From: Pseudodesulfovibrio mercurii
GTDB taxonomy: Bacteria; Desulfobacterota; Desulfovibrionia; Desulfovibrionales; Desulfovibrionaceae
Length of the DNA: 32,000 bases
NCBI RefSeq assembly: GCF_000189295.2
Contig: NC_016803.1
Span: forward strand, 3,570,001-3,602,000
Direction of reading: 5' to 3'
Below the pieces are notes generated by a model. That model was not told the origin of the DNA. It did not search any database and saw only the letters and a program-made list of their open reading frames with translations. Positions 16,914 through 24,210 of the stretch are shown one piece after another. The translations under genes and the position numbers were made by a program. The first letter of the stretch is position 1. Every line of letters begins with the position of its first letter.

Positions 16914-17078
16914 TGTCTATCCTTCACAACCGTTGTCGGCGAGGCGGGAGCCCCGCGCGCAATGGTCGTCGTTGAAGCTGTTATCCTTAATGATATGGCC
17001 TGGGTATGACCTGCCATCCCTTGATCTTCTTGCGATTTTCCGATTTCTTTCACGTACCGTTCATCACTGTTCTCCTTG

Positions 17079-17148: not shown

Positions 17149-17158
17149 GCCGCACCCC
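17149..17158 (-). promoter_or_regulatory. Candidate antiterminator segment GGGGUGCGGC, 1 nt after the tyrA stop codon
   Basis: Perfect 10-nt complement of GCCGCACCCC (17104-17113), which is part of the 5' arm of the terminator. The two pairings are mutually exclusive. Confidence 0.6.
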
Positions 17159-17159
17159 A

Positions 17160-17930
17160 TTAATAAGACTTTTCGTTACGCCACCACCACTGGGCCCGGT
17201 CGGCCAGCAGGTCGAGATCGCCGCCGGCGGCCAGGCTGAGATAGGACATGAACTTGCGGCTGACTTCCTGAAGGAAGGGATTGGCCTCGGAGATTATCTC
17301 GAACAGCTCCGTGTCCTGGGTGAGCATCTTGGCCGCCGCGTCGAGCCTGCGGCGGAAGGACGGGGTGACGAAATTCCCGATGCCCTCCACGTCGCGGGCC
17401 GCCGCCAGGAAGGCCACGGTGGAGGTGTAGTTCAGACCCTGGATGTAGGCCATGGCACGGTCGTGCGCCTCGGGGGTGGAGGCGAAGCATTCGTAGCCGC
17501 AGCGGGTGAACAGGTCGGCCACCCGGTCCGCCGCGTCGGCGTCCCGGTCGCGGCCGGGCATGACCGCCACGCGGGGCGTAAAGCCCTCGGGGATGACCGC
17601 GCCGAACAGGGGGTGGGTGCCGACCACCGGGCCCGAGTAGCGGGCGAGCATGGCCTTGACGGGCAGGACCTTGACCGAGCCCACGTCGCACAGGATGGTC
17701 GGTTCCTTGAGGTGGGGCGCCATGCGTTCGAGCACGGCGTTCATGGCCGTGACCGGCACGCTGAGCAGGAGCAGGTCGCACCCGGTCAGGGCCGCGCGCA
17801 CGTCCTCGTCCGAGGAGCGCCGACCCAGGCCGGTGACGGAAAGGCCGAGCCCGGCGAAGTCCGCCGAGAAGCGTCCGCCCATCTGTCCGCCCGCACCCAC
17901 GATGGTGATATGCTCGATTGCCGTTGCCAT
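17160..17930 (-). CDS. tyrA: Prephenate (or arogenate) dehydrogenase; C-terminus ...DRAQWWWRNEKSY
   Basis: N-terminal Rossmann motif ITIVGAGGQMGG and the conserved HPLFG segment. Placed between aroA and trpE. Confidence 0.88.
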   Translation of the reverse strand: MATAIEHITIVGAGGQMGGRFSADFAGLGLSVTGLGRRSSDEDVRAALTGCDLLLLSVPVTAMNAVLERMAPHLKEPTILCDVGSVKVLPVKAMLARYSGPVVGTHPLFGAVIPEGFTPRVAVMPGRDRDADAADRVADLFTRCGYECFASTPEAHDRAMAYIQGLNYTSTVAFLAAARDVEGIGNFVTPSFRRRLDAAAKMLTQDTELFEIISEANPFLQEVSRKFMSYLSLAAGGDLDLLADRAQWWWRNEKSY

Positions 17931-20392: not shown

Positions 20393-20477
20393 GGTCTCTC
20401 CAGGTTTGCCTCCGGCTGCCGGGGCGCCGTTCACTCGTATTCCTACTGTCTTGCTTCATTGCCCGCATTTTCTCAAC

Positions 20478-20530
20478 CCCCGCCGCGCGGAAGCGGCGGG
20501 AACGTCGAGGCGGGGGAAGGAGATGGGGGG
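20478..20530 (-). repeat. Partial copy (G) of the intergenic repeat family inside the operon, directly after the aroB' stop
   Basis: CCCGCCGC-GCGGAA-GCGGCGGG hairpin resembling module 1 (CCGCGAAGCGGCG). GGGGGAAGGAGATGGGGGG resembles GGAAGGGAGAGGGGATGGGGGG of copy A and abuts the stop codon at 20531. Confidence 0.5.
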
Positions 20531-21524: not shown

Positions 21525-22322
21525 CTAGGCGTTGAGGTGTTTGAGGGCGGCCTCGACGGATTCGTCGCCGTGGACGATCATGTTCAGGGCCTCCACCAGG
21601 CGGGTGGGATTCTCGTGCTGGAAGACGTTGCGGCCCACGGACAATCCCGCGCCGCCCGCCTCCAGGGAGTCATGGACCATCTGAAGGAATGCCTCGGTGC
21701 TGTCAAGCTTGGGGCCGCCCGCGATGACCACGGGGATGCAGCAGGCGTCGCACACGCGGGCGAAGGTCTCCTTGTCGCCGGTGTAGTTGACCTTGACCAC
21801 GTCCGCGCCGAGCTCGGTGCCGACCCGGGCGCAGTGGGCCACGACGGCGGGATCGTATTCGTTCTTCACCTTGGGGCCGCGGGCGTAGACCATGGCCAGG
21901 AGCGGGATGCCCCAGTTGGCGGCCTCGGAGGACATCCGGCCGAAATCGCCGAGCATGGCGGCCTCGGTCTCGTCGCCGAGGTTGCAGTGGATGGACACGG
22001 CGTCCGCGCCCAGGCGGATGGCGTCCTCCACCGAGGCGACCAGGGATTTGGCGTTGGGGAAGGGGGACAGGGAGGTGGAGGCGGACAGGTGGACGATGAG
22101 CCCGATGTCCTTGCCCTGGGCGCGGTGGCCGCAGCGGACCAGCCCCTTGTGTTCGATGACGGCGTTGGCCCCGCCGTCCACGACCCGGCCCACGGCCTCG
22201 CGCATGTCGACAAGCCCGTCGATGGGGCCCACGGTCACGCCGTGGTCCATGGGGACGATGATGGTCCGGCCGGTGTTGCGGTTGAAGATGCGCTCCAGCC
22301 GGATGGCTTTACCGATGTGCAT
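21525..22322 (-). CDS. aroA': 2-amino-3,7-dideoxy-D-threo-hept-6-ulosonate (ADH) synthase, class I aldolase (DhnA/FbaB) family (AroA')
   Basis: [18 protein letters not shown], the VKVNY Schiff-base lysine context, [18 protein letters not shown]. Start set to ATG 22322 ([13 protein letters not shown]), preceded by AAGGAGAG. Confidence 0.82.
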
Positions 22323-22380
22323 GGTTCTCTCTCCTTTTGCGGTTGTTGCCCTCAAGGAGCGGCGGGTCCGGCGGCCGATG

Positions 22381-22418
22381 AAAAAAACAAGGGCCGCCGG
22401 CTTTCGCCCGCGGCCCTT
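22381..22418 (-). terminator. Intrinsic terminator in the 5' leader of the aro-trp supraoperon (candidate attenuator)
   Basis: Minus strand: AAGGGCCGCGGGC-GAAA-GCCGGCGGCCCUU (12 of 13 pairs, GNRA loop), then G + UUUUUUU. Lies 58 nt upstream of the aroA' ATG. Confidence 0.8.
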
Positions 22419-22456
22419 GAAGAAGTTCTTTTTCGCTTGTGTGATCCACCAACAGG

Positions 22457-22552
22457 TTACACAGCACCTCTTCCAAGCCCGCGGGCATGGCTAAACCAAT
22501 ACCAAAAATAAAAGTTGGAAAAGTATGCGTTGGAAACGGTGGTGGAGTTCAT
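22457..22552 (-). CDS. Candidate 31-aa leader peptide [31 protein letters not shown] (aromatic-rich)
   Basis: Hand translation of the minus strand. ATG at 22552-22550, TAA at 22459-22457. Residues 10-20 are 9/11 aromatic (4 Phe, 3 Tyr, 2 Trp). All 4 Phe codons are TTT and 2 of 3 Tyr codons are TAT, unlike the TTC/TAC seen in flanking genes. No clear SD. Confidence 0.6.
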
Positions 22553-22810
22553 GGCCAATAGAGCTACACGGTTGCGGCCGTGGTGTCAACAAAAACTTTT
22601 TTCACGATTTCAAGGAGATAGCGTGAATCGCATGATTAATTTGCGACCGGCGGTCATTTTTAGGGTGTTTTGACAATTTTTTACATATTGACAATTTTGG
22701 GGTAATTTTCACCCTGCAAAAATGTACTTTATCACAAAAATGAAAAAATGTGACCATCTGAAACCGCCTGCGAGCGGCGATTTTACGTGAATAGCAATGA
22801 AAACCGTGAT

Positions 22811-22826
22811 TGGCACGACTCTTGAT
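22811..22826 (+). promoter_or_regulatory. Sigma54-type (-24/-12) promoter candidate for amtB-glnK
   Basis: TGGCAC-GACTC-TTGAT versus consensus TGGCAC-N5-TTGCW. Only the -12 C is off. Ends 50 nt upstream of the amtB ATG. Nitrogen genes are classical sigma54 targets. Confidence 0.5.
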
Positions 22827-22875
22827 AGAGGGAGGGCAGGTTAGAAACGCATTCCATTCAAAGAGGAGTATTGCA

Positions 22876-24210
22876 ATGTTTTCGAGAAAGTCCCCGACCC
22901 ATGTTTCCAAGAGGCTCGCCATAGGCGTGGCCGCTTTGGCAGCAGTCCTGGCCCCCACCTTCGCCCACGCCCAGGAAGTGGAGGTCCTCACCCAGTCCAA
23001 CGCCAACATTCTGTGGACGTTGATCGCCGCCGCCCTGGTCATGCTCATGCAGGCCGGCTTCGCCTGCGTCGAGTGCGGCTTCACCCGCGCCAAAAACGCC
23101 GGCAACATCATGATGAAGAACTTCCTGGACTACGCCGCCGGTTCCATCATCTTCTTCCTGTTCGGCTACGCCATCATGTTCGGCGCCGACGCCGGCGGCT
23201 TCATCGGCACCTCCGGCTACGCCCTGGCCGGCATCACCGAGGCCGACCTGCCCTGGACCTACACCTTCTGGTTCTTCCAGTCCGTGTTCGCCGCCACCGC
23301 CGCCACCATCGTCTCCGGCGGCATGGCCGAGCGCACCAAGTTCGGCACCTACGTCATCATTTCCATGGTCATCTCCGGCGTGATCTACCCCATCTCCGGC
23401 CACTGGGTCTGGGGCGGCGGCTGGCTGGCCAACCTCGGCTTCTGCGACTTCGCCGGTTCCTCCGTGGTCCACTCCGTGGGCGGCTGGATCGCCCTGGCCG
23501 GCGCCCTGGTGCTCGGCCCGCGCATCGGCAAGTACTCCGAGGACGGCAAGGCGCGCGCCATTCCGGGCCACAACATCCCGCTGGCCGGTCTGGGCGTCTT
23601 CCTCCTGTGGTTCGGCTGGTTCGGATTCAACCCCGGCTCCACCGTCGAGGCCAATGACGCCATCGGCCTGATCGCCATGAACACCACCCTGGCCGCCTGC
23701 GGCGGTACGCTCGCCGCCATGGTCTTCGCCTGGTTCCGCTTCGGCAAGCCCGACATCTCCATGTCCATGAACGGCGCCCTGGCCGGCCTGGTCGGCATCA
23801 CCGCCCCCTGCGCCACCGTCACCCCCGGCGCGTCCATCGTCATCGGCCTGATCGCCGGTGTCCTGGTGGTCCTGTCCATCGAGTTCATCGACAAGGTCCT
23901 CAAGATCGACGATCCGGTCGGCGCCTCCTCGGTCCACGGCGTTTGCGGCGCCTGGGGCACCATCGCCGCCGGTCTGTTCAACGTTGACGGCGGCCTGTTC
24001 TACGGCGGCGGCGTCCACCTCCTGGGTGTGCAGCTGCTCGGCGTCGGCGCCATCTTCATCTGGGCCTTCGGCTGCGGCTTCATCCTGATGAACGTCCTCA
24101 AGGGTGTCGTCGGCCTCCGCGCCTCCAAGGAAGAGGAGCTCAAGGGTCTGGACATCGGCGAGCACGGCTCCGAGGCCTACAACGGCTTCCAGCTCTTCAG
24201 CAACGAGTAG
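22876..24210 (+). CDS. amtB: Ammonium transporter (Amt family) with cleavable signal peptide
   Basis: Signal-like N-terminus ...AALAAVLAPTFAHAQE. Amt motifs: LMQAGFACVECG, DFAGSSVVH, GWFGFNPGS, VHGVCGAWGTI. GAGGAG lies 7 nt upstream of the ATG at 22876. Confidence 0.95.
   Translation: MFSRKSPTHVSKRLAIGVAALAAVLAPTFAHAQEVEVLTQSNANILWTLIAAALVMLMQAGFACVECGFTRAKNAGNIMMKNFLDYAAGSIIFFLFGYAIMFGADAGGFIGTSGYALAGITEADLPWTYTFWFFQSVFAATAATIVSGGMAERTKFGTYVIISMVISGVIYPISGHWVWGGGWLANLGFCDFAGSSVVHSVGGWIALAGALVLGPRIGKYSEDGKARAIPGHNIPLAGLGVFLLWFGWFGFNPGSTVEANDAIGLIAMNTTLAACGGTLAAMVFAWFRFGKPDISMSMNGALAGLVGITAPCATVTPGASIVIGLIAGVLVVLSIEFIDKVLKIDDPVGASSVHGVCGAWGTIAAGLFNVDGGLFYGGGVHLLGVQLLGVGAIFIWAFGCGFILMNVLKGVVGLRASKEEELKGLDIGEHGSEAYNGFQLFSNE

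Follow-up and report, generated by a model that had tools for sequence, protein, structure and literature searches.

How does Pseudodesulfovibrio mercurii adjust the expression of its aromatic amino acid pathway to the supply of phenylalanine, tyrosine and tryptophan? The window analyzed here, a stretch of 32,000 nucleotides from contig NC_016803.1 (3,570,001 to 3,602,000; positions below are counted from its first base), carries on its minus strand a cluster of 12 genes, aroA'-aroB'-pheA-aroA-tyrA-trpEGDCFBA, running from 22322 to 10550, and in front of aroA' a small open reading frame (ORF) crowded with codons for all three amino acids and followed by a terminator. A first-pass annotation, made from the sequence alone, had proposed a candidate ribosome-mediated attenuator sensing Phe, Tyr and Trp at this position. 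The proposal is supported by its recurrence in 53 of 53 operons of relatives, by covariation and by codon bias, and we conclude that the leader is very probably a classical ribosome-mediated transcription attenuator of the aromatic pathway in P. mercurii and its relatives among the Desulfovibrionales. The comparative evidence supports Phe, Tyr and Trp as the amino acids that it would sense. The mechanism is a textbook one; the twist is a tri-aromatic, widely conserved leader, read from what would be a leaderless transcript.

A conserved leader ORF rich in aromatic codons upstream of aroA'

The leader ORF is unannotated, comprises 31 codons and a TAA stop codon (22457-22552, minus strand; ATG at 22552, TAA at 22459-22457) and has no Shine-Dalgarno (SD) sequence. 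Nine of the eleven residues 10-20 of its peptide are aromatic (4 F, 3 Y, 2 W), encoded by a run at 22493-22525 (minus) that contains four TTT, two TAT, one TAC and two TGG codons. The ORF and its composition, as described in the first-pass annotation, were confirmed from the sequence and the ORF list. Among the 53,661 stop-free windows of 11 residues in the six frames of the whole stretch, this one ranks at the top, and in twenty shuffles of the stretch the maximum was 4-6 aromatics per 11 residues.

In order to follow the element among relatives, one genome per species with AroA' was scanned, which gave 80 loci, mostly from Desulfovibrionaceae and some from Desulfonatronaceae and Desulfohalobiaceae. 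In 59 of these, a small ORF with 6-10 aromatics in 10 residues ends 86-156 nt before aroA', and each of the 59 is followed by a strong hairpin (mean -27 kcal/mol) and a U tract. A leader with F, Y and W was present in all 53 loci where aroA' is succeeded by aroB'. The metagenome scan used the terminator motif alone and returned 120 loci; an AroA' start lies 44-158 nt downstream in 92 of them, and an aromatic leader was found in 88 of these 92. Human-gut contigs are among the metagenomic matches, which contain 63 distinct leader sequences. What had been put forward as a leader-peptide attenuator at a single locus is thus a module present in 59 genome loci and in 63 further distinct metagenomic leaders, composed of a TTGACA box, an ATG without SD sequence, an ORF rich in F, Y and W, an antiterminator strand, a terminator and a U tract.

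The codon usage of the leaders departs from that of the genes behind them. All four Phe codons of the leader in the window are TTT and two of its three Tyr codons are TAT, whereas the 12 operon genes use TTT 6 and TTC 139 times, and TAT 8 and TAC 65 times. The preference of the flanking genes for TTC and TAC, noticed at first by inspection, is therefore borne out by the counts, and the opposite bias of the leader is general among relatives. Related leaders contain 194 TTT and 70 TTC codons (73% TTT) as compared with 37 and 261 in the adjacent aroA' genes (12% TTT; Fisher p 7e-52), and 97 TAT and 49 TAC codons as compared with 26 and 191 (Fisher p 2e-27). Synonymous Phe and Tyr usage in the leaders is inverted relative to the neighboring aroA'. 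One tRNA decodes both codons of each Phe or Tyr pair, the U-ending codons being read by wobble, and a taste for these codons would sharpen ribosome stalling.

Aromatic codons make up 27.5% of the leader frame in relatives and 10-12% of the other frames, in a comparison where the openness of frame 0 is given by construction. Leader lengths vary by whole codons, F, Y and W swap for one another, and all three are present in 55 of 60 related leaders. Exact look-up of ten leader peptides in a collection of 15 billion proteins found no entry for eight of them, and none of the ten had a name; likewise, Pfam and NCBIfam profiles searched against four representative leaders gave no family at E<=10.

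Terminator and antiterminator pairings

The terminator hairpin (22388-22419, minus; -29.6 kcal/mol) has the form AAGGGCCGCGGGC-GAAA-GCCGGCGGCCCUU, with 12 of 13 positions paired and one G.G mismatch, and is followed by a G and a U7 tract (22381-22387, minus). It begins 38 nt after the leader stop codon, and the U tract lies 58 nt before the aroA' ATG (22322). The hairpin, its loop and both distances agree with the first-pass annotation. A terminator was found in 60 of 60 loci, with 96% of cells paired and 7 compensatory pairs in the alignment (A1). A simple terminator scanner missed this terminator, as well as the one between tyrA and trpE described below, because of the internal mismatches in both.

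By analogy with the usual numbering, the terminator corresponds to regions 3:4. Region 2, the 5' strand of the antiterminator (22457-22486, minus), consists of GCCCGCGG, CUU, GGAAGAGG, UGCUGUG and the stop codon, and region 3, the 3' strand (22406-22440, minus), overlaps the 5' arm of the terminator; both were assigned from folding and covariation. GCCCGCGG (22486->22479) and CCGCGGGC in the terminator 5' arm are exactly complementary to each other, a pairing proposed earlier as an available antiterminator. Among relatives this pairing, stem A (leader GCCYGCGG with the terminator 5' arm), is formed in 98.5% of cells, and sliding one partner by 1-3 columns reduces pairing to 31-43%. The central pair of stem A (columns 117/201) is UA in 32 sequences, CG in 19, UG in 4 and AU in 3, and 22 sequences have changed on both sides. 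Column 201 is a base that is unpaired (R.G) in the terminator, so that the covariation at this column can only originate from the antiterminator. The leader codon at the central pair switches between Cys, Arg and Ser, and the constraint on stem A is therefore on the RNA and not on the peptide.

In the window, the antiterminator extends well beyond stem A. Leader nucleotides 61-148, including GCCCGCGG, CUU, GGAAGAGG and UGCUGUG, fold with -40.8 kcal/mol, the 5' strand being made up of the last ten codons (GCCCGCGG...GGAAGAGGUGCUGUG) and the stop codon being located in the apical part. Across loci, the 2:3 helix has a mean of -37.1 kcal/mol as compared with -28.4 kcal/mol when the spacer alone is shuffled. 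An SD-like GAGGUG is found at 22468-22476 (minus), a few nucleotides 5' of the leader stop codon and inside the antiterminator 5' strand, and GGGAGAGGUG is found in many relatives. The partner of the GAGGUG is CCUCUUC, which is anti-SD-like; the SD-like motif might hold the terminating ribosome, or the resemblance may be a coincidence of pairing.

Region 1, the anti-antiterminator (22512-22530, minus), pairs with region 2 in the terminated minimum free energy (MFE) fold of the segment from the ATG to the terminator. Region 1 of relatives usually consists of N-terminal codons, often including the AUG, that are paired to region 2 with the aromatic run on top, and folds of the ORF by itself are better than codon shuffles in 93% of the leaders (mean z -2.0; -30.0 vs -23.9 kcal/mol). 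Region 1 and stem B were judged sequence by sequence, the MAFFT alignment being too gappy there for column counts. In three loci (L029, L037 and L052), sequences read by eye showed that region 1 carries GCCGCUGGC, which is the sequence of their own terminator 5' arm, and that both copies complement region 2 (GCCAGCGG).

A fifth segment, GGCCGCCGG (region 5; 22368-22376, minus), lies 4 nt past the U tract and complements the terminator 3' arm, with a duplex energy in the window of -23.1 as compared with -15.1 for shuffled sequences (z -2.8). Most loci contain region 5, which shows compensatory changes in L026, L028, L054 and L076, and the 4:5 helix is 74% paired in alignment A1, where shuffles were not decisive. 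Region 5 cannot affect termination itself; any role that it has would be in the read-through mRNA.

Putative promoter and predicted start of the leader transcript

A -35 box, TTGACA, is located at 22584-22589 (minus) and is followed after 17 nt by the -10-like hexamer TAGCTC (22561-22566, minus), 8 nt before the leader ATG; both had been pointed out previously and match the sequence. As scored, 56 of 60 loci have a TTGAC[A/T] box with its 3' end 30-32 nt upstream of the leader ATG, a count that rises to 58 of 60 on re-reading of L043 (32 nt from the outer TTGACA) and L067 (31 nt to the first in-frame ATG). In the metagenomic leaders, the distance from the -35 box to the ATG is 29-34 nt in 49 of 61. 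The dinucleotide TA recurs 17-18 nt after the -35 box in related loci, the sixth T of the -10 hexamer not being conserved, and an SD-like motif precedes the leader ATG in just 4 of 60 genome loci and 7 of 61 metagenomic leaders. Because of the fixed distance between the -35 box and the ATG, and because an SD sequence is missing, we infer that transcription starts at the leader ATG or within ~3 nt of it.

Proposed mechanism and alternative explanations

These features suggest the following switch. Transcription would start at the leader ATG or no more than a few bases away, and the 31-codon ORF would be read from a leaderless mRNA. When charged tRNA-Phe, tRNA-Tyr or tRNA-Trp is scarce, the ribosome would stall within the nine aromatic codons, mostly rare TTT and TAT, so that the last ten codons could base-pair with the spacer and the terminator 5' arm in an antiterminator of -41 kcal/mol, and RNA polymerase would read into aroA'-aroB'-pheA-aroA-tyrA. 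With all three amino acids plentiful, the ribosome would reach the stop codon, the 5' arm would be free and the terminator (-30 kcal/mol and U7) would form, with termination falling at ~22381. Without translation of the leader, region 2 would be paired with the 5' half of the ORF, again in favor of termination. What is observed directly is the sequence with its conserved and covarying features; leader translation, stalling, the transcription start and termination itself are deduced from these.

Folding predictions for the different ribosome positions support parts of this model. Ribosome states were compared on transcripts cut just before the terminator 3' arm, which represent the state at the moment of choice. 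The probability of stem A in these is ~1 without a ribosome and has a mean of 0.85 with a ribosome on the aromatic codons, the last of which lies 6 nt from stem A in most leaders. This is in line with the earlier proposal that stalling on the aromatic codons would free the segment. With a ribosome on region 2, the minimum falls to 0.00 in 57 of 58 sequences (L025: 0.86).

Several results weigh against the model. No promoter was called at the leader by a consensus promoter scanner, the -10 hexamer being poor, and a literature search for leaderless mRNAs in Desulfovibrio gave no report that this lineage translates such transcripts; the suggestion of a transcript that starts near the ATG is favored by the fixed spacing of 30-32 nt and the missing SD sequence, and disfavored by the poor -10 hexamer. 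The fold of the ORF in the window (1:2) is no better than codon shuffles (z -0.2), and 2:3 pairing outcompetes 1:2 in the cut transcripts at equilibrium. For a ribosome whose A site holds the stop codon, stem A is predicted to re-form behind it, with a mean probability of still 0.76 when no steric rule is applied, because its 5' strand ends 13-28 nt (median 19) upstream of the stop codon and is left uncovered by a footprint of -15..+12. GCCCGCGG in the window ends 19 nt upstream of the stop codon; the earlier idea that full translation would mask this segment therefore holds only in part: the remainder of the strand is covered by the ribosome, which sits between the halves of the helix, whereas GCCCGCGG itself is not. 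At equilibrium, the full-length leader forms the terminator with a probability of 0.96-0.99 whichever codon is masked by a ribosome. The comparison of energies suggested by the first-pass annotation has two sides, the antiterminator being the more stable element (-40.8 vs -29.6 kcal/mol) and the full-length fold always giving the terminator. Classical attenuators likewise always form the terminator at equilibrium. Since the terminator wins at equilibrium, control must be kinetic.

Three other explanations of the leader were considered. The RNA switch could be real without the ORF being its sensor, if the choice between antiterminator and terminator depends on a ligand of the leader RNA (a protein, an uncharged tRNA or a metabolite) and the aromatic codons are a by-product of a U-rich RNA. 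The conserved C-terminal SRACGLG of the peptide, which clearly reflects a constraint at the RNA level, the 10-12% of aromatic codons that the U-rich run yields out of frame and the missing SD sequence before the ATG would all fit this explanation. Yet no Rfam family, T-box included, was matched even at E<=10, the ATG stands at a fixed distance from the promoter, the frame is kept open through length changes in units of one codon, and substitutions among F, Y and W preserve the aromatic character. Moreover, Phe-only, Phe-rich and Tyr-rich versions precede different genes, and the synonymous bias toward rare TTT and TAT is a property of codons rather than of a binding site. We therefore consider ligand binding to the leader very improbable. 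Slightly less probable still is that the nascent peptide, extremely aromatic and hydrophobic as it is, stalls the ribosome in response to a free amino acid in the manner of TnaC and not through a shortage of charged tRNA. W-rich arrest peptides exist, but arrest peptides keep fixed key residues, whereas the aromatic run here is free in order, length and composition. The bias toward slow codons fits decoding limited by tRNA, and stalling on free amino acids would switch the operon on at abundance, which is the wrong sign for biosynthesis.

The strong -35 box of the ORF and the strong terminator after it would also be expected of an independent gene for a small hydrophobic peptide, with aroA' having a promoter of its own further downstream. 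However, the interval between the U tract and aroA' is only 58 nt long, and no promoter-like site was found in it. The module is tied to aroA'-aroB' in 53 of 53 operons, outside the aromatic run the peptide is constrained as RNA and not as protein, and a covarying antiterminator that overlaps a terminator arm would be purposeless at the end of a simple gene. Of the three, this explanation appears to us the most improbable.

A second element at the tyrA-trpE junction

The leader is probably not the sole switch for the trp half of the operon, since a further putative terminator and antiterminator are found after tyrA. The tyrA-trpE spacer of the window is 246 nt long and contains the hairpin CGAAGCCGCA.CCCG-AUC-CGGG.UGCGGCUUCG (17117-17085, minus) followed by U6 (17084-17079), 165 nt before the trpE ATG (16913). 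The TyrA protein ends with DRAQ-W-W-W-RNEKSY, with three consecutive Trp codons (TGG TGG TGG, 17181-17189, minus; W248-W250 of the C-terminal tail) six codons before the stop. The stop codon TAA (17162-17160) and the putative antiterminator strand GGGGUGCGGC (17158-17149), identified by duplex energy, together occupy 17149-17162 (minus). GGGGUGCGGC starts one base past the stop codon and complements GCCGCACCCC (17112-17103) in the hairpin 5' arm, with a duplex energy of -25.8 as compared with -11.2 for shuffled sequences (z -5.1). The hairpin region has an MFE of -40.4 kcal/mol (z -2.9).

A terminator with a U tract 26-46 nt past the tyrA stop codon was found in 16 of 18 metagenomic tyrA-trpE junctions. 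In the window and in 16 of 16 loci with a downstream terminator, 4-11 codons separate WWW or WWWW from the tyrA stop; these 16 loci also have a strand, within -18..+19 nt relative to the stop codon, that complements the terminator 5' arm. Strand and arm differ in sequence between lineages yet match each other (GGGACGCGGC/GCCGCGUCCC, GGGGAGGUGCG/CGCAUCCUCCCC and GGGGGGGGAC/UUCCCUCCCC), with duplex energies of -18 to -29 kcal/mol and a mean z of -3.1. The last Trp codon starts 17-25 nt before the antiterminator strand, regardless of whether the strand lies inside or after the coding region. In the two junctions where tyrA overlaps trpE, leaving no spacer, the tail contains WW only.

The tyrA-trpE element thus looks like a second, Trp-specific attenuator without a separate leader peptide. 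A ribosome at the tyrA stop codon would cover the strand and the terminator would form, while a Trp-starved ribosome stalled at WWW would leave the strand free, and transcription would read into trpE. The first leader would then open the common and the Phe/Tyr genes upon shortage of any aromatic tRNA, and the second gate would let polymerase pass into the trp genes only under a shortage of Trp. The presence of Trp codons in the first leader, although trp has its own switch, may be explained by the first leader answering any aromatic shortage. An Rfam search of the tyrA-trpE spacer gave no family match, and we know of no named family of attenuators in which the element lies within the 3' end of the preceding gene. 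In the literature, we found no account of an amino acid attenuator in which the C-terminal tail of an upstream enzyme is employed like this.

Two further features are located in the same spacer. Downstream of the internal terminator and upstream of trpE, ATGGCA-16-TATCAT (16990-17017, minus) resembles a promoter, and the trp genes may also have one of their own. Right after the internal terminator (17050-17077, minus), a strong AAGGAG is followed by a mini-ORF of four codons, ATG AAC GGT ACG TGA, which is nearly identical in L186 and recognizable in L161 (ATG AAA GGT ACG TGA), and which may load ribosomes before trpE.

Alternatively, the hairpin could be the plain end of an aroA'-tyrA unit, with trpE transcribed from its own promoter, the WWW being structural and the complementarity at the stop codon having no regulatory role. 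The WWW motif is nearly invariant, being present in 119 of 120 TyrA homologues at >=58% identity, and may be partly structural; the two loci with overlapping tyrA and trpE still carry WW, and the promoter-like site upstream of trpE is where this explanation would place a promoter. A ribosome on the tyrA stop codon also lowers the predicted antiterminator pairing only partly, from 0.89 to 0.45 in the window. As opposed to this, a strand near the tyrA stop complements the 5' arm in all 16 junctions with a terminator, strand and arm diverge between lineages and stay matched (mean z -3.1), and the distance from the last Trp codon to the strand is held at 17-25 nt both inside and past the coding region, while the residues that follow WWW differ in number and identity. 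Alignments to homologues of TyrA in the PDB stop by residue 216 and so do not bear on a structural role of WWW. A plain transcript end is a serious possibility, which we nonetheless consider rather unlikely.

Re-use of the leader scaffold

The scaffold of promoter, leader and terminator is also found with other codon contents. Phe-only leaders (e.g., FFFFFFF) with the same promoter, scaffold and terminator precede a second aroA' paralogue in L044, L050, L063 and L070, where enough downstream sequence is available to see that the paralogue is not succeeded by aroB'. L032, L057, L094, L132, L138 and L183 also belong to the Phe-only group, and a Tyr-rich leader (YYYYGY) was found in L085. Four stand-alone aroA' paralogues beside a CheY-like gene have Phe-only leaders such as MNTRTAFSFFFFFFFRNACGSGLTL; in 19 stand-alone aroA' paralogues no leader was detected, one of these (L057) having a weak Phe-type ORF. 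The Phe-only and Tyr-rich leaders before aroA' paralogues are reminiscent of the isozyme-specific control of DAHP synthases.

In three loci (L110, minus strand; L196; L156), the same scaffold with the Phe-rich leader MNTNQNRFSYFFFFSFRFFRSACGLGVCV precedes genes for a symporter small accessory protein (NF045580) and a symporter. The sodium:solute symporter of L110 (3756-5363, minus; 535 amino acids) belongs to PF00474 and scores below the cut-offs for PutP and PanF. The symporter behind the Phe-rich leader is a candidate importer of Phe or aromatic amino acids.

Taken together, it appears reasonably likely that the supraoperon of the Desulfovibrionaceae is governed by two attenuators in series, a leaderless tri-aromatic leader and a tyrA tail of the form W-W-W-x4-11-stop, and that the scaffold of the former has been re-used for aroA' paralogues and a symporter. 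Less expected among these results are the putative Trp attenuator embedded in tyrA and the recurrence of the scaffold before paralogues and a symporter.

Comparison with known attenuators

Searching the whole window against Rfam gave no family at gathering score, amino acid leader families and T-box included, and at E<=10 the region 22000-23000 returned only unrelated look-alikes of small RNA terminators. The sole prior mention found is in Table 7 of Song et al. (2005; PMC1173090), which lists a "putative attenuator" before the supraoperon of D. vulgaris, taken from Merino's attenuator website. The D. vulgaris call concerns the same operon type and the same position before aroA', and is likened to our element by operon and position alone. 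It is based on structure only and comprises no leader peptide, amino acid specificity, conservation or second site after tyrA; the words "leader" and "codons" do not occur in the paper. A survey of cis-regulatory RNA in 2013 covered ten Desulfovibrionales genomes with Rfam motifs only and deemed amino acid attenuators essentially gammaproteobacterial (PMC3766115), and Naville and Gautheret (2010) contains nothing on this lineage. Rodionov et al. (2004) does not describe a Desulfovibrio trp attenuator; the paper mentions neither tryptophan, attenuator nor leader peptide.

The closest mechanistic parallels are trpL and pheL of E. coli (pheL described in PMC3082878; both mechanisms summarized in PMC11802643), which share with the P. 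mercurii leader a short ORF rich in codons for the regulated amino acid, a decision made by ribosome position, and mutually exclusive 1:2, 2:3 (antiterminator) and 3:4 (terminator and U tract) pairings. In contrast to these, the P. mercurii leader shows no sequence or covariance-model similarity to them and has no SD sequence, its promoter geometry placing the start at the ATG. It combines three amino acids per leader, with 7-10 aromatic codons, region 1 of its relatives usually includes the start codon, a fifth segment complements region 4, and the host belongs to the Thermodesulfobacteriota. The aroR leader upstream of aroF in Corynebacterium glutamicum (Neshat et al. 2014), as described in PMC11802643, contains Phe-Tyr-Phe and responds to Phe and not to Tyr. 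According to that description, aroR resembles our leader in being a mixed-aromatic leader peptide that attenuates the operon of the first enzyme of the common pathway, but it has three aromatic residues as compared with 9-10, no Trp, an actinobacterial host, and a DAHP synthase in place of the AroA'/AroB' route.

Leaderless short ORFs encoding polycysteine are Cys-responsive attenuators in mycobacteria (bioRxiv 10.1101/834739). These also place the ORF at the 5' end of the transcript without SD sequence, sense an amino acid through a codon run and control a downstream operon. They differ in phylum and amino acid, while our leader has an intrinsic terminator and a covarying antiterminator, and its leaderless nature is suggested by promoter spacing. 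For the tyrA element, the nearest parallel is YtgCR of Chlamydia trachomatis, where a WWW motif acts as Trp sensor via ribosome stalling (PMC7755916), again with three consecutive Trp codons within the gene of a full-length protein. Stalling in Chlamydia is described as reducing downstream expression, whereas stalling in tyrA is predicted to raise read-through via a hairpin switch and an intrinsic terminator, and the Trp codons of tyrA are located 4-11 codons from the stop, beside the antiterminator strand.

Genomic context

The TyrA protein encoded in the window is 100% identical to that of Pseudodesulfovibrio mercurii (Desulfovibrionaceae, Thermodesulfobacteriota). The first gene of the cluster, aroA' (21525-22322, minus), has its own AAGGAG SD sequence and encodes 2-amino-3,7-dideoxy-D-threo-hept-6-ulosonate synthase (TIGR01949, 4e-118). 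It is followed by aroB' (dehydroquinate synthase II) and the genes for chorismate mutase/prephenate dehydratase, EPSP synthase and prephenate dehydrogenase, and then by trpE, G, D, C, F, B and A. A third attenuator was considered in the aroB'-pheA spacer (20435-20530, minus) and rejected; the spacer contains a GC-rich hairpin (CCCGCCGC...GCGGCGGG) but no U tract. Upstream of the leader, an ammonium transporter gene is divergently transcribed. The AT-rich spacer between the leader promoter and this gene contains two exact copies of TTGACAATTTT, 18 nt apart (22670-22698, plus), which could be -35-like boxes or a regulator site.

Biological implications

The results extend leader-peptide attenuation to a phylum where it was previously uncharacterized. 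The small leader ORFs are missing from gene calls. One RNA scaffold fitted with F+Y+W, Phe-only and Tyr-rich leaders provides a natural series for how codon content sets specificity, which may be useful as a source of sensor parts for anaerobes, and its re-use predicts the substrate of an uncharacterized sodium:solute symporter, namely Phe or another aromatic amino acid. The tyrA element, if true, would be an attenuator without a separate leader peptide, in which amino acid supply is read from the tail of an enzyme gene. For sulfate reducers, including the mercury-methylating Pseudodesulfovibrio, the two elements offer a testable regulatory logic for aromatic amino acid synthesis, and contigs of human-gut Desulfovibrionaceae bear the same module.

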